A stretch of DNA of 21,835 nt from a virus. Lineage: Duplodnaviria; Heunggongvirae; Uroviricota; Caudoviricetes. Under the pieces are notes generated by a model, which worked only from the letters and a program-made list of their open reading frames with translations, searched no databases and was not told the origin of the DNA. Within the stretch, counting starts at the first letter, position 1. The number at the start of each line of letters is the position of its first letter. The DNA lies in the IMG/VR virus record IMGVR_UViG_2802429217_000001; one strand, given 5' to 3'. Both the position numbers and the translations under genes were made by a program. Positions 2,902-21,244 of this stretch are shown here, piece by piece.

Positions 2902-3980
2902 CAGAACGGGTCCTCCTGTACTCTGGCTTTTTTCTTTTTCCGCGCGCCGGGATCTTCGGGTTCAGGCAGATAAGCATCAGGCGGGCCGACACGGATTTCC
3001 GTCAGGGTGCCGTTCTGGTCCTGAGTAAACGTGACTTCCGAAACAAGCAGTTCGGTATTGTCGAAACCACAGACCGGATCAAAGACAATCACCCGCTGGT
3101 TGGGCTGCCACAGCGTACCGTTACCCTGTCGCCAGCCCTGCACCACATAGGTGGTTTCATCCGTCCGCGCCGCCCGTTGTCGGGCTTCAAAGTCAGCACG
3201 CGCAATACAACCTGCCCCCGTGGCCTGCCCTGTCTGCCTGATATACATCGGACGGTAACGGGCAATAAATGCGTCCTCTGTGCGGGCCCGCAGCGCGGTG
3301 GTGGTGGCCTCACCGAAATCATCGTCGTTTCCGGCACGCTGCCCCGCCACCTGGTAAACTGAAAACCGCTCCCGGATACTCTTCTCCGTATCACAGGAAA
3401 GGATGTTTTCCCCAAGTACCAGCGCGGTATGTGCCCGCGTTGAGCCAATACCGCCAATCACCAGCCTGCCGTGCGGGTCGTCGTAAGCCAGTGCCTGCTG
3501 CTGACCGAGTATTTTGTTGATTACCTCAATCACCGTTTCACCGTGATCAGGCTGGACATCAGGAATAACACCCGACGGCGCACCGTTGTTCACCACCTCA
3601 ATGCCGAAAGGCGCAGCAAGCGCCTACGCAATCTGTACCAGCGATCGTCCGTTAAACTGTGTCGGTTCGGCTGCACAGTCAATCAGGTCAGCGGTCAGAC
3701 TGCGTCCGGCAATACCGGTGCTGACCGAACGGGCATCGTAACGAACGGGCGTCGCCTCCACCCAGCCGGTGATCACCAGCTCATCACCAATCAGCACCTC
3801 CACTTTTGAACCGTTTTTAATGCACGGCTGAAGCGTGGTAATACCCTCATCTCCCGGCCACTGGCGGGTGATCTCCACACTGAAATCCCGCGCCAGCCGT
3901 TCAATACCGGCACCGATGCGCACCGATGTCCAGCCATTCCACTCCCGGCCATTTACCCGTAGCGTGACATTGTCGTTCAT
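2901..3980 (-). pseudogene. Mu gpP-like baseplate/tail protein, interrupted by a single in-frame TAG (amber) codon at 3624-3626
   Basis: ORFs 3624..3980 (118 aa) and 2901..3596 (231 aa) are in the same frame (3980-3596 = 384 = 3x128). Between them is only TAG (plus cta at 3624-3626) plus nine sense codons. Read-through gives ...SLVQIA-*-ALAAPFGIEVVNNGAPSG..., about 359 aa, matching a gpP-like protein in the slot between the N-like and V-like genes. Confidence 0.6.
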
Positions 3981-5305
3981 TGCACTGGCACCTTCAGAGG
4001 GATCACCGGCACAAAGCCGGGATGCGTAATGGCATTACGCCGGATAATGTCCGCGTCACGCGCCGCGTTATCAAACCAGGTCGCCGCCAGCACCAGCGCG
4101 GGTAAAACCTCATCCGGCGTGCGCTGAATGATCCGTGCAGACTGTTCAAGGCGCGTGTTGATATCCGCATTCAGATCTGCTTTCACCCGGCGCAGCGCCA
4201 GAAACAGCGCATCACTGGTTGTACGGGACAACTCCTTATCAATTGCCGTATTCAGTGTGTCGCGAATGTCGGTCAGTTCTTCCCACGTTGGCAGGTCAAC
4301 CGTGTTTTTCACCGCCGGTGCATTGTTCAGTGCCGGATGCGTGACAGAAGGCCAGCCGGTGCTCTGCGCGGGTGTTGTTGACTGCCCCACTGTGGCATTC
4401 TGCATCACCGCGGAAGTTGTGGGCGCAGGCAATCGTGTGACGGCATACGCCGCTTCGCTGATTGCGGTCGTACGAAGGGTGCTGGCAACCACGTTACGCT
4501 GCTGCGTCGCCGTGGCGGTGGTTTTACTGTCCGTTTTCCAGACGCCGCGCGGTTGCAGATCGCTGCCGAGGATGACACCGGAAAGCGTTTTGATCATGGT
4601 GACCAGGTCGCTGGCGTTACCATAAAGGCGTTTCCCGGTACGCCACATTTTCTGCACCTGCTCAACGAAATTTTTGCCTGACGATGGCGGCGGCAGAAGT
4701 ACCGAGATATCCCCCTGCAACAGCCTGGCGGCATCCGATACGGCAGAATCCACCACTTTCATCGCATCAGAAACATACCCAAGCATTGTGCTGGCATTAC
4801 CGACGACGTCGTTCTGCACAAAATCTGCCACGCCATCGATACTGAAACCACTGAAGCTGTCACTGATGCAGTCATCCAGTGCAGAACAGGATGACATCAG
4901 CGTCTGCGCCGTCGCCGCACCTGAAGTGGGGTAAGAGAGTTCTCCCGCTTCGACAAACTTCAGGTCAAAGCGGACAATACGCCCTTCACTCTTCGATGTG
5001 CTGACCCGAACTTCCCCGTCAACACAGACTTTCAGCTCACCGTAAGTCGGATGGACAAGCGTGCCGGGACCGGGTTTATTCAGCGCGTCAATCAGGCGAT
5101 CGCGCTGGTCAAAGCAGTCATCTCCCACCACATAAGCTGTGATGGACGGGCGGAAAGTGATTTTCCCCAGGTCTTCGGTATAGGGTTTGTCGCGGTTCGG
5201 GTATTCGTGCGTTTCCACACGACGACCGGTTCCCGCACTTTCTTCTTCAACCTTAAACGGCACACCGCGAAATGACGCGTCCTGAAGTCTGTCTTTCCAC
5301 GTCAT
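3977..5305 (-). CDS. DNA circulation protein (Mu N-like)
   Basis: Long ORF (456 aa from the track start at 5347). N-terminus from the internal Met reads MTWKDRLQDASFRGVPFKV..., which I recognise as the N-like DNA-circulation N-terminal pattern. Start placed at ATG 5305 because it has an SD (GGAG, 6-nt spacer) and the 5347 start would overlap a terminator hairpin. Confidence 0.7.
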   Translation of the reverse strand: MTWKDRLQDASFRGVPFKVEEESAGTGRRVETHEYPNRDKPYTEDLGKITFRPSITAYVVGDDCFDQRDRLIDALNKPGPGTLVHPTYGELKVCVDGEVRVSTSKSEGRIVRFDLKFVEAGELSYPTSGAATAQTLMSSCSALDDCISDSFSGFSIDGVADFVQNDVVGNASTMLGYVSDAMKVVDSAVSDAARLLQGDISVLLPPPSSGKNFVEQVQKMWRTGKRLYGNASDLVTMIKTLSGVILGSDLQPRGVWKTDSKTTATATQQRNVVASTLRTTAISEAAYAVTRLPAPTTSAVMQNATVGQSTTPAQSTGWPSVTHPALNNAPAVKNTVDLPTWEELTDIRDTLNTAIDKELSRTTSDALFLALRRVKADLNADINTRLEQSARIIQRTPDEVLPALVLAATWFDNAARDADIIRRNAITHPGFVPVIPLKVPVQ

Positions 5306-5320
5306 ATAAACTCCGTACAT

Positions 5321-5342
5321 AAAAAATCCCACCGGAGTGGGA
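5321..5342 (-). terminator. Rho-independent terminator-like hairpin between the tape measure and N-like genes
   Basis: On the minus strand: UCCCAC-UCCG-GUGGGA (plus 5327-5342) followed directly by U6 (plus a-run 5321-5326). Lies between the tape measure stop (5366) and the N-like start (5305). Confidence 0.5.
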
Positions 5343-5365
5343 CTCATTAACAGATTAATTTTTCA

Positions 5366-7201
5366 TTACCTGCCAAAGCGCGTATAGCCAACATCATGGC
5401 TGACATCAAAACCGCTGGATCGCGTTTCCATAACCCGCATACCCGGAGGCGAATTCACAAAAGAGACCTTGATCTCACCATCAACTTTTGGCGCAGAAGC
5501 TTTGTTAATCATGAAGGGATTCGGGCCTGTGGCATCGGAGGCGTTGTTTGACTGAGCCGGATCTACCGCCTGATAAGGTGTGTATCCCCGTGCCGGTATT
5601 CCCGTCCCATAAGCATCATAAGCACCCGCGCCCCACTGCGCAGAGTTAATGGCATCGACCGTGTCACCGGAACTGTCGGTAAACCACTCAATAATTGGCT
5701 TCAGCTTGTCCCACATATCCTGAAACCACTTAACAACCGGTCCCCAGTTATTGATTACCATCCCCAGCGGCGACCAGGCAAAAACCTTCTTCAGAAGTTC
5801 CCAGCCAGCCTCAAAATAAGGACCAATGGTTTCCCAGAGCTTCTTGAAATAAGGTCCGACAACATCCCAGTTAGTGATAATTAATCCCGCAGCCAGGGCT
5901 ATCGCCGTCGCAATCATGCCAATCGGCGTCATCGACATGATCCTGCTGACAATGCTGATGGCACTGCCCACGCTCATCAATCCCAGTTTCAGAATCGCAA
6001 GACCGGCAGCAAGCCCGACGACGCCGCGAATAACCCGGGGATTTTCATCCGCAAACTTCGTGAATTTTTCCCCCAACTCCCCCAGCCATTGCGTGATATT
6101 TTTGGCGTCACCAGAAAATGCGCCGCCAATAGCCGCAAGGCCGTTAGTTGCGGTCCCCGTCATTGCCTCCCACAGGTTGGACAGCGTACCAAGCTGTGCC
6201 TGAACACGTTTATTCAGGCTGGCCTGTTTATTCATCTTTTGCTGGATCTGATCGTAACCATCCTTTCCTTTATCGATCAGCGCATTGACCACCTGAAGGG
6301 TTTCGGCATCATCACCAAATATTGCCTTAAGTACACCTGTTCGCTTAACGTCGGTCAATTTTCGCAGCTTTGCCAGTTGCTTAAACATGTTATCAAGACC
6401 GCCAAAACTTCCTTTGCCGTCAGTAAAATCGAGCTGTACCCCGAGTTTCTGACGGGCCATAACTTTATTGACGTCCCTGATTTTCTTAACGCTTAATCCG
6501 GACTGGATAACTTTTCGCAGGGCATTACCTGCCGACTCCCCGTTCATCCCCATCTGATCCATCATGACGCTGATGGGGGCAAGGCTCTGTGCAGCCTGAA
6601 GACCGTCCTTGTTCACCATCTTCAGAACAGAACTGGTTTTAGTGAAGAAGGACAACATGTTGGTATCGTCAACGCCCAGATAAAACGCCTTCTGGATAGT
6701 GTCGAACAGCCCCATCATGTCTTCTGACGCCGTTCCGGTAGCATCCTGCATCTTTGCAGCAAACTCAGCAGCCGCTTCCGGTGTTTTTTTCAGTTGTACC
6801 GCAAGATAAGCTGTCGCTTTACCCACACCGCCAAGAATATTTTCTGCCGGGATCCCCTGACGCACCAGCATCTGCATCATGTTCTGGAAATCAGCCGTTG
6901 TACCGGGTAGCTGGTTACCCAGGCCAATAGCCAGTTTATTGATGTCCTGAAAGCTCTTTCCGACCTCGCCGTTCGCATCCATCATGGCGACTTTCAGCCC
7001 GGTGGCGGCGTTTTCCTGATCGGCATAAGATTTCAGGGAAAGCGTCAGACCCGCTGCCAGTCCGCCACCAAGCGCCAGCCCACCCTGTGATGCTTCTTCC
7101 GCCTGGCGTTTAAATCCCCGGATTTTCTTTTGCATTTTCGACAGCGCGGGAGAAAGTCTGTCGACACCGGTGATCAACGCCTTAAGCTCAAATTCAGCCA
7201 T
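5366..7201 (-). CDS. Tail tape measure protein
   Basis: 611-aa ORF directly downstream of the chaperone/frameshift pair. Gly/Ala-rich N-terminal part and hydrophobic C-terminal segments. SD GGAGAAA upstream of ATG 7201. Confidence 0.8.
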   Translation of the reverse strand: MAEFELKALITGVDRLSPALSKMQKKIRGFKRQAEEASQGGLALGGGLAAGLTLSLKSYADQENAATGLKVAMMDANGEVGKSFQDINKLAIGLGNQLPGTTADFQNMMQMLVRQGIPAENILGGVGKATAYLAVQLKKTPEAAAEFAAKMQDATGTASEDMMGLFDTIQKAFYLGVDDTNMLSFFTKTSSVLKMVNKDGLQAAQSLAPISVMMDQMGMNGESAGNALRKVIQSGLSVKKIRDVNKVMARQKLGVQLDFTDGKGSFGGLDNMFKQLAKLRKLTDVKRTGVLKAIFGDDAETLQVVNALIDKGKDGYDQIQQKMNKQASLNKRVQAQLGTLSNLWEAMTGTATNGLAAIGGAFSGDAKNITQWLGELGEKFTKFADENPRVIRGVVGLAAGLAILKLGLMSVGSAISIVSRIMSMTPIGMIATAIALAAGLIITNWDVVGPYFKKLWETIGPYFEAGWELLKKVFAWSPLGMVINNWGPVVKWFQDMWDKLKPIIEWFTDSSGDTVDAINSAQWGAGAYDAYGTGIPARGYTPYQAVDPAQSNNASDATGPNPFMINKASAPKVDGEIKVSFVNSPPGMRVMETRSSGFDVSHDVGYTRFGR

Positions 7202-14930: not shown

Positions 14931-16664
14931 TTAAAGCGAGCGGATCCCATAGGACTCAATGTGGTCAGACAGCGTGTCTTCTTTCTCGTACAGCATGGCT
15001 CTGCCAACCGCCATAATCAGCGCAACTGCACCATCGATTTTGTTTTCCGCCTGCTCTTTGACGGGCTTCACCACATCATCGTTACCCGGAATGGTTTTGC
15101 CGACCACGTTGCCGATACACCAGGTCATGATGGGATTGCCATCATGATGAAAGCGCCCCGATTCAATTGCCGCTTCCAGCTCTTTCATCGGGTCGGACAT
15201 GTTGGTGTAGTTCTGAATGATAGTGATGGGGTTCAGGTCTTCATCAGCAAGGTCATGTGAGAGCCCGGTCGCCCCGAAGGGGTCGATGGGTGACTCGCTG
15301 ACCGGGCTGATTTTGTTCGCCGCTTTGGCCTCTTCGAGGATGTAGCGATAATCCACCTCCGCACCATCGGTAACGGTCAGAACGCCCATTTCCACCCATT
15401 TCTGAAAGCGTTCGGCTGTCCGGCGATCTTCATTTTTCTCGACGCTGTACACCGTGTCATACGGTACCCAGAAACGCGGGGCTACACTGTAGTAATGCGT
15501 TTTACCGTCAATCTCGCGGGTATAAAGTCGCGCCATGCTGTTCATATCCAGTTTACGCGCCAGGTCAAAGGCCAGAATGCACGGCTGCCCCTCGAACTGC
15601 TCAAGGGACAGTGATTTATCCTCGCAGCTCTGCCAGCTCACCAGGTTGAAATACGCCGAACGCGCCGACACCCAGATATTGAGGTGTTTTGTTTTAAAGA
15701 CGTTTGCCAGACGGGCGTTATTTTTCGCGCGCTGTTGCTGACTTAACAAAAACTCACGGTAAACCGACACCCCGATATTCGGGTTGGCTTTTTCCAGCAC
15801 CTGCGGGTCGGTCCAGTCGTCACCTTCGTCAACGGTATAGATGATCCCGAACAGTTCATCGTTGGGTACCGAACCGTTGAGCATCTCGATGACTTCCCGC
15901 CGTTTGTCGTAGCACGGCCCCTCAATGTTGTACCCGGCGGTAGTGATAGCCCACATCAGTGGCTGACGTCGCGCCCCCATCCCGGTAAGCATCGTGGTGT
16001 AAAGCGCATCTGTGGCGTGCTCGTGATATTCATCCACCACCGCACAGTGGGGTGATGAACCATCACCGGGGTTACCGATCAGCGGTTCAAAACGCGCACC
16101 ATCCTCCGGACGGTTCATGTTTGAGGCGTTAACCTCAATCCCGAACGCTTCCGTCAGCATGGGTGTGCGTTTACACATCAGTCTTGCCGGACGAAAGACT
16201 TCCCATGCCTGTTTCTCCGTCGTGGCACCGGAATACACTTCCGCGCCGAACTCGTTATCACAGGCAAAACAATACAGAGCGACACCGGCAGAAATTGCCG
16301 ATTTGCCGTTCTTACGGGGGATTTCGGTATACACCTCACGGAAGCGGCGCAGCCGGGAGCCTTTATTGACCCAGCCAAACGCGCAGCAGATCACAAAGAG
16401 CTGCCACGGCTCCAGCGTGATAGGCATCCTCTTGAATGCCCACTCACCCTTGGTGTGCGGCAACAGCTGAATAAATTTGGCGGCCCGTTCAGCCAGGTCC
16501 TTGTCGAAGCGGTAACGAAACGACTTACTTTTTTCCGCCATCAGGTCATCAAGATGGCGCTGGCAGGCCTGAATCACAAACTGGCAGGCCACAATCTTTC
16601 CGCGCACGACATCACGGGCATACTGATTGGCAGCATTTACGTTGGGGTAAGATTTCCGGCTCAT
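14931..16664 (-). CDS. Terminase large subunit
   Basis: 577-aa ORF with a Walker A-like motif (..[12 protein letters not shown]..) in the N-terminal ATPase part; directly follows the small subunit gene. Confidence 0.9.
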
Positions 16665-17155
16665 GACTCGATGATTTTCAGAAACGGGTTAGTGGCTTTC
16701 TTCTGCCCCGCCAGGCCAATCAGACGCTGGCGGCTGCTGGGGTCGAGTCCGAGCATTGCCCCCGTACTGCTCATCTCGGACTCCTGTTCTTTTTTGGCGG
16801 TCAGCTCCGGATTTTTGACCATACCGCCCATTGCACCGGTGATGGTGTTGCCCTGTCTGGCAATATTTTTCACGGCACGTCGCCAGAACTCATAGGCCAC
16901 ACACCACCGCTCAAGCACCGCGAGGTCAGTCACGCACAGCAGGCCCTGACCGCAGAGTTCTTTGGTTGTCAGTTGCCACATGATCGTGGCGAGAGGGAGA
17001 TCTTCTTCAGCGAACCACTCCGGTGGCTCAACACCTTTGATGGGCGTAAAAACAGGTTCATCTTTATTCAGGGCTCGCTTGCCGGGGTTTCCGGCCAGCG
17101 CCTTGCGCGCCGTTGGCTTGGGGCGACGCCCGGAACGCCCCGCCGTTCCAGCCAT
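16661..17155 (-). CDS. Terminase small subunit
   Basis: ORF immediately upstream of the large subunit with an ATGA-type overlap. Start set at ATG 17155 (SD AGGAG 8 nt upstream) rather than the track's GTG 17164. Confidence 0.75.
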
Positions 17156-17194
17156 ATGCGGCACTCCTGGTTAAATTTCATTTTTCGCGGGTAT

Positions 17195-17254
17195 AAAAAA
17201 ACGATGGGGCGGGCAGTCCGGAAGACGTCAGGCCAAAGGGATTTGACCCGCCCC
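17195..17254 (-). other. GC-rich inverted repeat plus U7 between the HNH and small terminase genes (terminator-like; candidate cos region)
   Basis: Minus-strand arms GGGGCGGG (plus 17247-17254) and CCCGCCCC (plus 17206-17213) around a 33-nt loop containing GACGTC, then AUCG + U7 (plus a-run 17195-17201). Confidence 0.35.
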
Positions 17255-17280
17255 TCCCCTCTGGCAGTGGGAACTGGTTC

Positions 17281-17631
17281 TTACTTCAGCCGTTCACGGG
17301 CCGTCTTCGCCTTATGACACGGCCAGCACAGACTCTGCAGATTATTGTCGGCATCAGTGCCGCCATGCGCTTTAGGGATGATGTGGTCAACGGTTTTTGC
17401 TTCACGCACCACGCCAGCACGCTGGCATAACTGACATAAACCTTTGTCACGCTTCAGCACGCGCGCGCGGATAACGTCCCACTTCGAACCATAACCGCGC
17501 TGATGACGGGACTGACCTGGCTTGTATTGCTTCCAGCCTTCGCTTTTGTGGCTTTCGCAGTAGCCTGAAGGATCTGTGGTGGTATGGCGGCAGCCGCGAA
17601 AACGGCAGGCTTTTGGGGTTCGTGGTGGCAT
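17281..17631 (-). CDS. HNH endonuclease (packaging-associated)
   Basis: 116-aa ORF with Cys pairs and the motif ..VDHIIPKAHGGTDADNNLQSLCWPCHKAKT..; located directly upstream of the terminase genes. Confidence 0.85.
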   Translation of the reverse strand: MPPRTPKACRFRGCRHTTTDPSGYCESHKSEGWKQYKPGQSRHQRGYGSKWDVIRARVLKRDKGLCQLCQRAGVVREAKTVDHIIPKAHGGTDADNNLQSLCWPCHKAKTARERLK

Positions 17632-17733
17632 TTAAAGTGGGATCTAACTCTAATAATTTAAAAAATTTAATTGGGTCTTGATATTAATCACATAGACTCA
17701 ATGCTCTTTAGTTCTTACATAGGTGGTTGTATT

Positions 17734-18174
17734 ATGAGTATCCCCAGTTTAGATGTTCATAAAGTTGTTAAGTGCGCGGAGCATAAAAAGGCTTTAGATG
17801 CAATATCTCTCAAACTTAAGAATAACATTATTGACTCAAGCACTGAATGCGATTTTCTTGGCGACACAATAATTTTCAATCAAGATAAAAAAAATAGGTT
17901 AACCCTCAAACTTTCAACATATGAACTAGAACTTATTTTCAAAGAAACACTGCTGATCATTGATGACGCTCCTGTATTGAAGTTTGCTGCCATTGACCCA
18001 ACCGATGAAAATAACAACGAGTTGATTGATTTATTTTTATCCAAAAATGGATTTATTTATATTAGAGAATACAAATCCGAGCAACGTTATGAATATGGCG
18101 ACACTTCTCTATTTTTACATATACTTGACGCTACTCTTAAAGAGCTTAAAGCTGCAAACAAAATATCCTATTAA
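17734..18174 (+). CDS. Hypothetical protein, AT-rich cargo (moron) gene on the opposite strand
   Basis: Plus-strand ORF in a conspicuously AT-rich island between the Rz and HNH genes. Start set at ATG 17734 (SD AGGTGG, about 7-nt spacer; product MSIPSLDVHK..., 146 aa) rather than the track's TTG 17671. No recognisable family. Confidence 0.5.
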   Translation: MSIPSLDVHKVVKCAEHKKALDAISLKLKNNIIDSSTECDFLGDTIIFNQDKKNRLTLKLSTYELELIFKETLLIIDDAPVLKFAAIDPTDENNNELIDLFLSKNGFIYIREYKSEQRYEYGDTSLFLHILDATLKELKAANKISY

Positions 18175-18352
18175 ATAAATTTTTGCTAACATAGCCCCTC
18201 GCCATGACAAGATTTTCTGTTCTAGATGCAAGGGCTATGTGTGAATATCTATAAACAAAAACCCCATCCGGTGATTTTTGTCATTTTTTAGCCATCTCAA
18301 TTGCGGCATCAAAAAGTCGTTCAAGAATAAAATCAGGGTACTGTAATTTTTC

Positions 18353-18595
18353 TTACTCGATATGAAGCTTATAAATTTTTCTTCCCCACTCCCATTTAAA
18401 ATCAAATCCAGAAGCAGAAGGTGCGAAATGTATTTTAGCTTTAGGGTTAGCGTAACCAGCAACAGTCAACACATCAAACTTAAAATCTTGAGGTTTAATA
18501 CGCATAGTCATATCCTTTACCAAGTTCATCATTATTCTTCGCGAGAATAAAACAATGAATAAAATCATTAAAGCATAGACGTTAAATATCCTCAA
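18353..18595 (-). CDS. Small hypothetical protein, start uncertain
   Basis: 80-aa ORF from a TTG start with a hydrophobic N-terminus (ALMILFIVLF). Alternative start at ATG 18505 (SD AAGGA, 7-nt spacer) gives a 50-aa product MRIKPQDFKFDVLTVAGYANPKAKIHFAPSASGFDFKWEWG.... AT-rich. Confidence 0.3.
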   Translation of the reverse strand: MRIFNVYALMILFIVLFSRRIMMNLVKDMTMRIKPQDFKFDVLTVAGYANPKAKIHFAPSASGFDFKWEWGRKIYKLHIE

Positions 18596-18602
18596 AATGT
18601 GA

Positions 18603-19064
18603 TTAGTTGGGACATTGCGTCCTGATATACTCCTGCAAGTAATTCACCTGTGAGGTTATCTTGTCGATTCCACTTCGGAGACGGTAATAATGGAGTTCAG
18701 CATCTGCTGTAAGTCTAGGGCTTTCTCCATCGCCCATGCCGCTGGCTCCGGTCGTTGACTTTGCACAGGTGGCGGCGACTTGCAGGCGCTTACGACCAGC
18801 AGAAACATCAGCACGGAGACTTTCGATAGTCGCGTTAGCATCAGCAAGCTCCTTTGTATATCTGGCATCGAGTTCTGCTACGTCACGTTGACGCTTCTGC
18901 ATATCAGAGATCGTCGCCATAGCCGAATCTAATGCCATAGCGTTTTCGTCGCGCTGTTTTTTGTATTCAATGGCTTTATTGTGGTAATGATTAGCTGACC
19001 AGACAAGACCACCAGCAATACAAGCAATAAACGTTAAAATGAGCGCCCAATAACTCATCTTCAT
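18603..19064 (-). CDS. Rz: Rz i-spanin
   Basis: 153-aa ORF with an N-terminal TM segment (YWALILTFIACIAGGLVW) and ..NHYHNKAIEYKKQRDENA..MQKRQRDVAELDARYTKELADA.., closely resembling lambda Rz as I recall it. Start overlaps the endolysin stop. Confidence 0.85.
   Translation of the reverse strand: MKMSYWALILTFIACIAGGLVWSANHYHNKAIEYKKQRDENAMALDSAMATISDMQKRQRDVAELDARYTKELADANATIESLRADVSAGRKRLQVAATCAKSTTGASGMGDGESPRLTADAELHYYRLRSGIDKITSQVNYLQEYIRTQCPN
18656..18841 (-). CDS. Rz1: Rz1 o-spanin lipoprotein, embedded in Rz in the +1 frame
   Basis: MLTRLSKVSVLMFLLVVSAC-KSPPPVQSQRPEPAAW...: signal peptide with lipobox VSAC followed by a Pro-rich segment. SD AAGGAG 7 nt before ATG 18841. Lies entirely inside Rz. 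Confidence 0.75.
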   Translation of the reverse strand: MLTRLSKVSVLMFLLVVSACKSPPPVQSQRPEPAAWAMEKALDLQQMLNSIITVSEVESTR

Positions 19065-19675
19065 ACCAGCAGCGCCGCCCGCGCCTTGTTGTATCGAACC
19101 TTACGATCCTCAATACCGTTCAGACCGCCGTTAATGATGCGCGTAACACGATTAATATCGGCACCGTAGACCATGCAGCCTTTAGATGTGTAGAACCATG
19201 CAGCTGAGCGCGCGGCCTGTAGCTCCTGCTCCAGTTGTTCAGGTGAGGTCACCAGATCTAACTTCAGCGCCGCGCCACAGATGCGATAATTATGGAGGCC
19301 AGTGATTTGAATTAATCCTCTACCGCGATATTTCCAGCCATCACCGGGTGCTTTGTTACCCAGCCGGTTGCTATACACCAGATTGGCAATAGCATCCTGA
19401 CGAGCTGCATGTCCGGATGTTCTGCCAAGGGCATCAGCCTGCTGCTGTGTGATCCTCTTTCCGAACGTCGCCACCAGCGCAGATGGCGTGTAATTAAAAT
19501 TTTCAACTACGGCGCTAAACCCCATCGACTCATGGCCTACCTGAGCGATAAACATCGCCTGATCCGCTGGTGCTGTAATGCCGAATTCCTTCATCGCCGC
19601 ATCAATGTGCGGAAACCAGCGCGCAGCCAGCCCGGCGCTAATACCAGCCGCCTTTTGAAATAATTGTTGGTTCAT
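19061..19675 (-). CDS. Endolysin, glycoside hydrolase family 19 (chitinase-like lysozyme)
   Basis: 204-aa ORF with ..FIAQVGHESMGFS.. and ..YRGRGLIQITGLHNY..; sits between the holin-like genes and Rz. Confidence 0.85.
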   Translation of the reverse strand: MNQQLFQKAAGISAGLAARWFPHIDAAMKEFGITAPADQAMFIAQVGHESMGFSAVVENFNYTPSALVATFGKRITQQQADALGRTSGHAARQDAIANLVYSNRLGNKAPGDGWKYRGRGLIQITGLHNYRICGAALKLDLVTSPEQLEQELQAARSAAWFYTSKGCMVYGADINRVTRIINGGLNGIEDRKVRYNKARAALLV

Positions 19676-19956
19676 TAGTGCCTCAGATGATCAACCAGAC
19701 GTGCAACGTTGCCTCTGACGGCCACCAGCACGGAAAGAAAAATAGTGTTCGCCACGATAATGGGCCATGAGGAATGGGGATAAATCCCACAGAGATAGGC
19801 CAACGGAACAGCACTGTATGTAACAGTAATCAGCCAGGCTAAACGTGAAACCCAAGGACGATGCCGCGAATCACCACGACGATAAAACATCAGAGTAATA
19901 ACAACACAAGCACATAACAGCGCATTTATAGTTGCTGTCGGGTCATTTAGCTCCAC
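19675..19956 (-). CDS. Holin-like / lysis membrane protein (93 aa)
   Basis: Small protein with 2-3 hydrophobic segments, GTG start with SD GGAGG 5-6 nt upstream; overlaps both neighbours. Holin versus antiholin not resolvable. Confidence 0.5.
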   Translation of the reverse strand: MELNDPTATINALLCACVVITLMFYRRGDSRHRPWVSRLAWLITVTYSAVPLAYLCGIYPHSSWPIIVANTIFLSVLVAVRGNVARLVDHLRH

Positions 19957-20329
19957 CTGAACCTCCCCGGCGCGTTATAAGCGCCACCAGCGAACCGATA
20001 TCCTGGTTATTCAGAAACGTCAGGATTTTAACGGCTAAAGCAGAGACGATTACGGCACCAATAGCATCCAGAGGTTTATCACTGTATCCGGTCAAGTTTG
20101 CCAGCTTGGAGCCAACCAACCCAGAGCAAAGGATCCCAGCAATATATGACACGATAAAATATGCCAGTCGACGCGATGCACTCAGATCTGCTGCTGTTGC
20201 TATATAGAATACAGCCCCTGCAAATGCGCCAAATACAACGCCGTAATCAGTTCCGGTCAGCAGTCCATAAATACTAGCGCCCGTTAGGGCTCCACCAGCT
20301 AACCCTGTGCCGGAAATCGGATCGGACAT
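19943..20329 (-). CDS. Putative holin (about 128 aa, multi-TM)
   Basis: MSDPISGTGLAGGALTGASIYGLL... with 3-4 Gly/Ala-rich hydrophobic segments and a charged C-terminus. Start set at ATG 20329 (SD GAGGTGG); the track's start at 20395 would span two hairpins and a U-tract. Confidence 0.55.
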   Translation of the reverse strand: MSDPISGTGLAGGALTGASIYGLLTGTDYGVVFGAFAGAVFYIATAADLSASRRLAYFIVSYIAGILCSGLVGSKLANLTGYSDKPLDAIGAVIVSALAVKILTFLNNQDIGSLVALITRRGGSGGAK

Positions 20330-20380
20330 TAGCCACCTCTTATTGCAGTGAGTCCTCTCAGAAATAGAAATGAGAGGAAT

Positions 20381-20404
20381 AAAAAAGGCCACCATTTGGC
20401 AGCC
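20381..20404 (-). terminator. Rho-independent terminator between the cargo gene and the holin
   Basis: Minus-strand GGCUGCC-AAAU-GGUGGCC (two G-U pairs; plus 20387-20404) followed by U6 (plus a-run 20381-20386). A second hairpin CCUCUCA-N10-UGAGAGG (plus 20354-20377) follows. Confidence 0.5.
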
Positions 20405-20437: not shown

Positions 20438-21244
20438 CTATTTCTTAATGATGCTATTTAACATTTCTAATGCAAAAAGCAACATGGAGCTAATAAAATA
20501 TAATATAACCGCACTGGCAATCGCTCCAATTATAGCCTGGACACTCCAATGAAAGTAATTTTTACCATTAATAACAAACTTAACGCTAGGAAACAAAAAG
20601 TCGATAAGCTTAATTATTAATGGAATAGCAAAGCTCCATAAGTTCGAAAACAAAATAAAGATACAAATAAATGATAAAGCAAATGCACCATCGATTGATA
20701 GTTTTGGCGCCAGTTTTGAGGCTGTCCATAAGCTAAGCAAAAAGCCAACTGTCACACCTGAAATCTGGATACTTAACATAGTCCAAGCTGTTCTAAAAAA
20801 TCTAAATTTATTTTTGCACTTGTTAAGTAAATCCTGAATCGTAATCCATAACGAGTCAACCCACTCATTATCTTCCGATGCTACAATCATTGTGCTGCTA
20901 TTTGAATTCCTCTCATCAATTCGTAGCTCCATCCAAGATCCATTCATCCTGTTAGACTGTCGACTTTGATAAGTTTCAATAGTAAAAATTATTTGATCAA
21001 TCCTAGTGGCCTGTCTAAAGTATTTCACAAGCTCACCGATAGAATCAACTTTATATCCCTTACCATCGAACAAAATAAAAAAAACACATTGAGCACAAAC
21101 TTCCCTACTTTCCTTTTGAGCTTGCTCATTCATTTTAACGCAGCGTTCGACAATTGCCGTGCTTAAGCTAATCAAGCTATCTTCATTTATAGAAACACCT
21201 GAAATATTCTTGCTTCTGTAAAAATATGACACTTTCGATTCCAC
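20438..21244 (-). CDS. Hypothetical two-domain membrane protein (268 aa), AT-rich cargo
   Basis: N-terminal roughly 150-aa soluble part and C-terminal multi-TM part (..GVTVGFLLSLW.., ..AFALSFICIFILFSNLWSFAIPLII.., ..AIIGAIASAVILYFISSMLLFAL..). GTG start at 21244 is uncertain. No recognisable family. Confidence 0.5.
   Translation of the reverse strand: MESKVSYFYRSKNISGVSINEDSLISLSTAIVERCVKMNEQAQKESREVCAQCVFFILFDGKGYKVDSIGELVKYFRQATRIDQIIFTIETYQSRQSNRMNGSWMELRIDERNSNSSTMIVASEDNEWVDSLWITIQDLLNKCKNKFRFFRTAWTMLSIQISGVTVGFLLSLWTASKLAPKLSIDGAFALSFICIFILFSNLWSFAIPLIIKLIDFLFPSVKFVINGKNYFHWSVQAIIGAIASAVILYFISSMLLFALEMLNSIIKK

Follow-up and report, generated by a model that had tools for sequence, protein, structure and literature searches.

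What is a single AT-rich gene doing on the opposite strand between the lysis and packaging genes of a temperate phage, and under which conditions would its product be made? The 21,835 nucleotides of DNA analysed here (hereafter the window) cover the late genes of a temperate phage of the SfV/HK97 type (an E. coli prophage), read on the minus strand. Its lysis cassette consists of two holin genes (19943-20395 and 19675-19956, both minus), a GH19 endolysin gene (19061-19675, minus) and, as the last gene, the Rz i-spanin gene (18603-19064, minus; PF03245, E = 1.1e-40; phrog_13), in which an Rz1 open reading frame with a lipobox-like VVSAC motif is embedded (18656-18868). The packaging module comprises an HNH endonuclease gene (17281-17631, minus; PF01844, E = 3.6e-16; phrog_144), a P27-type small terminase gene (TerS; 16661-17164, minus) and the large terminase gene (TerL; 14931-16664, minus), beyond which lie portal, protease and capsid genes and then those of a contractile tail (sheath, tape measure, baseplate). 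Rz forms the right boundary and HNH the left boundary of the slot that concerns us.

Between them, the gene at 17734..18174 runs on the plus strand and converges on the late operon. The preliminary description, made from the sequence alone, had called it the only convincing plus-strand gene, and our annotation agrees: all other functionally recognisable genes (baseplate, tape measure, sheath, capsid, portal, TerL, TerS, HNH, Rz, endolysin and holins) are on the minus strand, and two long plus-strand open reading frames elsewhere in the window gave no match when compared with PHROG. Because the linear SfI genome record ends, on its right side, at a point that corresponds to ~17206 of the window (within ~17165-17280), the cohesive-end site is probably located between HNH and TerS, which would place the gene 0.5-1 kb from the right cohesive end and the surrounding AT-rich island within ~1.4 kb of the right genome end, taking the SfI end as reference.

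The gene (ATG at 17734, TAA at 18172-18174) encodes 146 amino acids and belongs to an uncharacterised Enterobacteriaceae prophage family. A Shine-Dalgarno sequence, AGGTGG, can be read at 17721..17726 on the plus strand, 7 nt before the ATG, and homologues are preceded by equivalent AGGAG, AAGAGG or AAGGA sites. The mechanically called open reading frame opens further upstream at TTG 17671 (167 aa), and the same 167-aa TTG frame is annotated in strain S88; since the equivalent ATG opens homologues in all clades, shortly preceded in one clade by an in-frame stop, the 146-aa product, not the 167-aa TTG frame, is what is conserved. An open stretch of 167 codons was reached in none of 2000 shuffles of the 33% GC island (mean 68, maximum 159), and its chance per frame is ~3e-6, with a stop codon expected every ~14 codons at such a composition. 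Between diverged homologues, dN/dS was 0.17-0.32; against the 93%-identical allele of E. coli ATCC 11775 it was 0.65, based on 4 synonymous and 10 non-synonymous differences. The 146-aa gene is real and under purifying selection, and the exact protein of the window is present in NCBI as 'MULTISPECIES: hypothetical protein'.

The gene had been described as lying in an AT-rich island, and GC content indeed drops from 0.54-0.60 to 0.32-0.36 between ~17600 and 18650. The extent of the island required revision, in that it reaches 18602, not 18174, and holds a second, minus-strand gene (18281-18505) that had gone unmentioned. We delimit it as a replaceable cassette of 971 bp with ~33% GC, from the HNH start codon to the Rz stop codon (17632..18602); the 146-aa gene within it has a GC content of 0.327 and a GC3 of 0.30, against 0.54-0.59 for HNH, TerS and TerL. 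Similarity to sequenced phages ends at 17632 on the HNH side and restarts at 18613 inside the 3' end of Rz, with none between. Across 5426 complete E. coli genomes the whole 971 bp was found as a unit in 105, mostly at 97.3% identity, and an HNH gene of the window's type in 1115 (1258 places); about 8% of the prophages with this type of HNH carry the cassette and about 92% are without it. Carriers named among the listed matches are the extraintestinal and avian pathogenic strains UTI89, APEC O1, IHE3034, S88 and ATCC 11775. Searched with tblastn against 50,697 deposited phage records, the 146-aa protein had no match. No copy in the 5426 genomes exceeds 94.6% identity to the HNH gene of the window, nor do they hold a full-length match to the window-type allele of the 146-aa gene; the source is therefore a prophage variant that is missing from complete E. 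coli assemblies.

Relatives fill the interval between Rz and HNH differently. SfI (gp63), SKA5 (a 106-aa product) and 118970_sal3 (a 184-aa product) hold genes unrelated to ours, which fall into the PHROG unknown-function families phrog_5039, phrog_2483 and phrog_6169. The gene is thus patchily present at one position and differs in composition from the flanking phage genes, two marks of a moron, and by these comparisons it is accessory, not core. Related phages do not keep it as a conserved structural or packaging gene, and the earlier proposal of an opposite-strand, AT-rich cargo gene between lysis and packaging holds, with the cassette in 105 genomes as against 1115 with the HNH gene and other genes in the slot of relatives. 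As a kind of find this is ordinary: a moron in a known hot-spot. A second AT-rich gene (20438-21244, minus; GC 0.343) lies just upstream of the holins; its 268-aa product, hydrophobic in the C-terminal third, matches phrog_30208 (unknown function; E = 8.5e-162) and is without a Pfam or PADLOC match. We regard this gene, which occupies the slot that separates the antiterminator region from the lysis genes, as a probable further moron.

We then considered how widely the family occurs and where its members lie. Profile searches returned six proteins from 1.84 billion representative proteins and 16 from 5.8 billion clusters, with E. coli, Salmonella, Citrobacter koseri, Atlantibacter hermannii and Lelliottia species as named sources and identities down to 29-34%; IMG/VR contributed 11 loci with a family gene. 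Intact full-length frames occur in at least five genera. As far as these searches reach, the family is tiny and confined to Enterobacteriaceae. A scan of genome contigs (one genome per species) for family peptide patterns gave 63 pattern matches and no relative, a result that is limited by the patterns and is not evidence of absence.

Placement is strikingly constant. In seven independent contexts that we read (L001, L005, L015-L020), the gene directly follows the last lysis gene, on the opposite strand, before HNH-TerS-TerL, and this position and orientation persist down to ~30% identity in prophages of E. coli, Citrobacter, Atlantibacter and Lelliottia, though the type of endolysin differs (GH19, GH24 or GH108). 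All members have 27-35% GC within prophages of 49-54% GC, and synonymous sites are saturated between clades. Since position, orientation and AT-richness are kept across clades with saturated synonymous sites, the 146-aa gene is not a recent import but a long-standing resident that has retained all three. Other morons of the Rz-HNH interval in HK97/SfV-type phages (those of SfI, SKA5 and 118970_sal3, and the glycosyltransferase-named genes of Citrobacter and Lelliottia) share the same variable slot and all fall into unknown-function or moron PHROG families, but they are unrelated in sequence and mostly on the late-operon strand, whereas the 146-aa family is always on the opposite strand and nearest the lysis cassette.

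In the ~30%-identity clade (L015, L018, L019 and L020; ~3400-5950 in each), other morons are inserted between the family gene and HNH. There the family gene is divergent from a 485-aa moron of phrog_1579 ('glycosyltransferase'), 76 bp apart. L015, L018 and L019 have an adjoining gene of 195-198 aa, the L018 copy of which (195 aa) matches phrog_854 ('glucosyltransferase'), and L018 and L019 also carry an IraP-like anti-adaptor gene. On the gene content of these loci, the slot accumulates several morons in this clade.

The second gene of the island (18281..18505, minus) is a 74-aa late-strand gene, known as RefSeq WP_001220676.1 in ATCC 11775. In the window it is a nonsense pseudogene, in which CAA>TAA at 18353-18355 leaves 50 aa, and the 74-aa protein has no Pfam or PHROG family. 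In Enterobacter, Citrobacter and metagenomic phages with other terminase types, its homologues are always the next late-strand gene after Rz, and the opposite-strand cargo behind them varies from case to case (a 65-aa gene, a 206-aa gene, or DUF2158 with an 80-aa gene), which argues that the slot behind the lysis genes is a general hot-spot for such cargo. The 206-aa example (L014, 2211-2831, minus; metagenomic phage) has a weak PADLOC match to Cas6 (E = 8.4e-4). We also considered whether the 74-aa and 146-aa genes form a toxin-antitoxin-like pair or are otherwise obligate partners, and rejected this: the 146-aa gene is missing from the Enterobacter, Citrobacter and metagenomic phages that carry the 74-aa gene, the 74-aa gene is missing from the other clades of the 146-aa family, and in the window the 74-aa gene is a pseudogene while the 146-aa gene is intact.

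The 146-aa protein (16.7 kDa, pI 5.2) is soluble, with neither a transmembrane segment nor a signal peptide or lipobox. It does not resemble a lipoprotein of the lambda Bor type, its N-terminus (MSIPSLDVHKVVKCAEHKK) being polar and its maximum 19-residue hydropathy 1.13. The preliminary description had not recognised the protein, and scans with Pfam, PHROGs, NCBIfam and PADLOC likewise found no significant family, either for it or for any of the 13 family members. Sub-threshold matches to YueH (29 residues) and DUF1062 were confined to a single clade and taken as noise, and the literature on DUF1062 was uninformative for the family; in PADLOC-DB v2 the best match was PDC-M24A, at a non-significant E = 0.013 over 32 residues. 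A literature search by identifier (WP_000026993, ECS88_2890, UM146_03435, A0A0D6GQB0) found no papers, and a paper on a Gifsy defence protein concerns an unrelated ATPase. Within the family alignment the invariant residues mostly belong to the hydrophobic core; conserved polar positions are D7, K10, K18, K29, K83 and E112, and an N-terminal [YS]LDVxK motif is conserved. The alignment shows no conserved Cys/His/Ser cluster, and the protein is without a DNA-binding motif.

We modelled the structure with AlphaFold (AF2). A run with 3 sequences was unusable (pLDDT 44.6), and the model used here was built from 13 sequences (pLDDT 86.1, pTM 0.78). It predicts with confidence an alpha/beta-sandwich, in which a long helix (residues 8-38) is followed by six antiparallel strands (46-110) and a C-terminal helix (126-140). 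Foldseek found nothing in the PDB at E <= 0.001, and a profile search against PDB sequences gave one insignificant match. A single strong structural neighbour emerged, from the viral structure library: the model of CPT_Mana_015 from Burkholderia phage Mana (UniProt A0A873WDE3; Foldseek E = 1.4e-5), a hypothetical protein of similar size (151 aa) that superposes on our model with TM scores of 0.71/0.69 over the full length. Its gene lies in a P2-like temperate phage between the tail-completion genes and gpV and is followed by its own annotated terminator, a moron-type slot that corresponds to the P2 orf30 moron position. The two proteins nevertheless share 14% identity, with an hhalign probability of 0.2%, and phage type, host and slot are different; CPT_Mana_015 is also encoded on the same strand as its neighbours.

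Weak structural matches were to protein-binding modules, namely frataxin, UBC/RWD/UEV domains and T3SS chaperones, and we examined each for homology. A relation to frataxin/CyaY was rejected, with an hhalign probability to CyaY of 0.1% and a first helix that is not an acidic ridge. For E2/UBC proteins, including the bacterial Bil/Cap2 E2, the expected mark is a conserved catalytic cysteine after strand 4 (the HPN-Cys region); the loop at this place (residues 88-95) is variable and acidic and has no catalytic Cys, and the only frequent cysteine, C14, belongs to helix 1, with L or S in its place in two members. A type III secretion chaperone or YbjN-like fold (alpha-beta3-alpha-beta2-alpha) was rejected too, the model being without a helix inside the sheet.

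The signals that might govern expression were examined on both sides of the gene. Upstream lies an AT-rich spacer of 102 bp (17632..17733), in which the preliminary description had thought a promoter for the gene possible; as no plus-strand gene precedes it, a promoter is needed either within 17632-17733 or inside the antisense of HNH. A consensus scan found no sigma-70 site reaching 9/12 matches on the plus strand in 17632-17733, and promoter-like sites upstream of the homologues are no commoner than in shuffles. The spacer of the window has no difference from that of ATCC 11775 over 102 bp, and the coding sequence has 14 over 441 bp, a weak hint that the spacer may be under constraint (P ~0.04 under a uniform rate). 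It contains a TTGATA...CTCAATG motif that is also present in the 60% clade.

Downstream, two hairpins lie between the convergent genes. Hairpin 1 (CATAGCCCC...GGGGCTATG, with a large loop; 18189..18240) folds as RNA on both strands, with z = -2.9 on the minus strand, and is not called a terminator by the scan. Hairpin 2 (ACAAAAACCCCATCCGGTGATTTTTGT; 18255..18281) is an RNA fold followed by a T-run on the plus strand, with an A-run on its other side; it is a weak bidirectional terminator-like element, below the G-C pair criterion of the scan. The homologue in L020 is followed by a terminator-like hairpin that is positive in the scan. Compared with Rfam, the island had no match at E <= 1.

An A8 homopolymer in codons 51-54 (17887..17894, plus strand), in the predicted beta1-beta2 loop, is a recurrent site of frameshifts. 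A7 alleles, found on 871 contigs and annotated UM146_03435, encode a 55-aa product, and an A9 allele one of 54 aa; an allele 3 nt shorter stays in frame. Frameshifts occur in both allelic backgrounds (L024 and P0020 for the window type, L030 for the ATCC type). The ATCC-type allele is present in 102 complete E. coli genomes, as an exact A8 copy in 58 and an exact A7 copy in 43, the latter including UTI89, NU14, APEC O1, IHE3034, UM146 and IMT5155. Over 18 kb around the gene, UTI89 has the same protein accessions as ATCC 11775 where the stretches read overlap, with no annotated pseudogene listed, which argues that the frameshift is specific to the 146-aa gene and not part of a general prophage decay. 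The tract is interrupted in other clades, and the copy in the window is intact. The A8 tract could be a phase-variable switch, or a mutational hot-spot that marks weak selection in that lineage.

Taken as a whole, what does such a gene do? Lysogenic conversion, immunity and anti-phage action, the classes named in the preliminary description, are candidates. The closest known system by position is lambda bor, a moron downstream of Rz on the opposite strand that is expressed in lysogens. Our gene likewise follows the spanin genes directly, converges on the late operon and lies near the right cohesive end, and it is likewise accessory and compositionally atypical. Bor and the 146-aa protein have no sequence relation, however: Bor carries a signal peptide and a lipobox and resides in the outer membrane as a lipoprotein, whereas the 146-aa protein is without both and is predicted to be cytoplasmic, and it is for bor that expression in lysogens is known. 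In lambdoid phages, late transcription modified by Q has to run through this slot before it arrives at the packaging genes, as is established for lambda, and the ATCC 11775 and UTI89 relatives have an annotated antitermination protein encoded upstream of their lysis genes. We envisage the gene as a stand-alone moron in a 'bor-like' slot after the lysis cassette, transcribed against the late operon. Being antisense to a late transcript under Q antitermination, it would be expressed only while that transcription is off: in the lysogen, or just after DNA entry, it may be transcribed from a promoter of its own in the AT-rich DNA, and during late lytic growth, with late transcription on, it would be occluded. 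The protein shows no catalytic signature, and its predicted two-layer sandwich is typical of binding modules, so it would most likely act by stoichiometric binding to another protein and not by catalysis.

On this basis we favour, at a rough probability of 0.4, the reading that the gene encodes an inhibitor expressed in lysogens for phage-phage or phage-host conflict, which would exclude or interfere with competing phages. In its favour are a real, accessory gene with conserved position and orientation and persistent AT-richness, a soluble product without a catalytic signature, a predicted fold whose weak matches are protein-binding modules and whose one strong neighbour is encoded in a moron-type slot of phage Mana, independence from a partner, and the hairpins downstream of the gene in the window and in L020. 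Against it are the want of a promoter at the consensus threshold and of any PADLOC similarity, together with the frameshifted copy in 43 of 102 complete genomes, which, in an otherwise intact region, makes a strong and constant benefit to the lysogen unlikely. Known single-gene exclusion proteins are, moreover, mostly membrane-associated or enzymatic, and the 146-aa protein is neither.

The main rival would have the same protein act for the incoming phage, as an early 'first-in' product that is transcribed on DNA entry and binds a host defence protein, by analogy with Ocr or Acr proteins. In cos phages of the lambda type, the right cohesive end is packaged last and injected first, and the gene would lie close to that end (judged by SfI) and point inward. 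A small, soluble, mildly acidic protein of an orphan family without a catalytic motif would suit the role, and frequent frameshifts in lysogens fit a benefit to the phage rather than to the host. Right-end-first entry, however, is argued here by analogy with lambda; no strong promoter was found upstream of the gene, and anti-defence genes usually sit in early operons or are co-oriented with their neighbours behind a strong promoter. A pI of 5.2 is also not that of a DNA mimic. We consider this counter-defence role rather unlikely.

A third possibility is a lysogenic-conversion factor that acts in the cytoplasm on host physiology, such as stress tolerance, metabolism or virulence regulation. 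Slot and orientation are those of bor, the carriers named among the listed matches are extraintestinal or avian pathogenic strains, and persistent AT-richness, as seen in the family, typically marks conversion genes under H-NS control; neighbours in the ~30% clade belong to glycosyltransferase-named PHROG families, with the IraP-like anti-adaptor gene nearby. The protein, on the other hand, has neither a secretion signal nor a lipobox nor a DNA-binding motif, the copy in many of these pathogenic strains is frameshifted, and the family also occurs in environmental Lelliottia and Atlantibacter, so we give this explanation little credence.

An accessory contribution to lytic growth of the phage itself, such as the modulation of lysis timing or of HNH/terminase-dependent cos cleavage, would explain why the gene directly follows the last lysis gene in all clades, even where morons stand before HNH. 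It is hard to reconcile with absence from ~92% of the prophages with a window-type HNH and from all sequenced relatives, with an orientation antisense to the late transcript that would give poor expression during lysis and packaging, and with the different lysis cassettes (GH19, GH24 and GH108 endolysins) beside which the gene occurs; we judge such a role quite improbable. That the gene has no current function in the window lineage (decaying or selfish), or is not protein-coding, is very improbable: frameshifts in 42% of the copies in complete E. coli genomes, the dN/dS of 0.65 between two close alleles and the nonsense mutation in the neighbouring 74-aa gene point that way, against which stand a dN/dS of 0.17-0.32 across clades, intact full-length frames in at least five genera, a confidently predicted compact fold, an open reading frame far longer than chance allows and an intact copy in the window.

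A more novel reading can also be proposed, though we consider it rather unlikely. The family would be a new single-gene conflict module of SfV/HK97-type prophages, a non-enzymatic frataxin/RWD-like binder that blocks a competing phage or a host defence and that is switched through the A8 tract in the UTI89/APEC O1/ATCC 11775 clade. If this is true, slippage in the A8 tract makes the 146-aa gene a phase-variable prophage cargo gene. The natural on (A8) and off (A7) alleles in otherwise near-identical prophages provide ready-made isogenic comparisons; should the gene have no phenotype, it would be one more hypothetical moron. The interest of the family lies in its being missing from every curated library searched and yet present in well-studied pathogenic E. 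coli (UTI89, APEC O1, S88 and IHE3034) and in the type strain ATCC 11775, and more specifically in the combination of an orphan family with a confidently predicted fold, a recurrent on/off frameshift tract, and a placement and AT-richness that are conserved to an unusual degree. New defence and counter-defence proteins are known to come from prophage hot-spots, and this family is a clean single-gene candidate from one of them.
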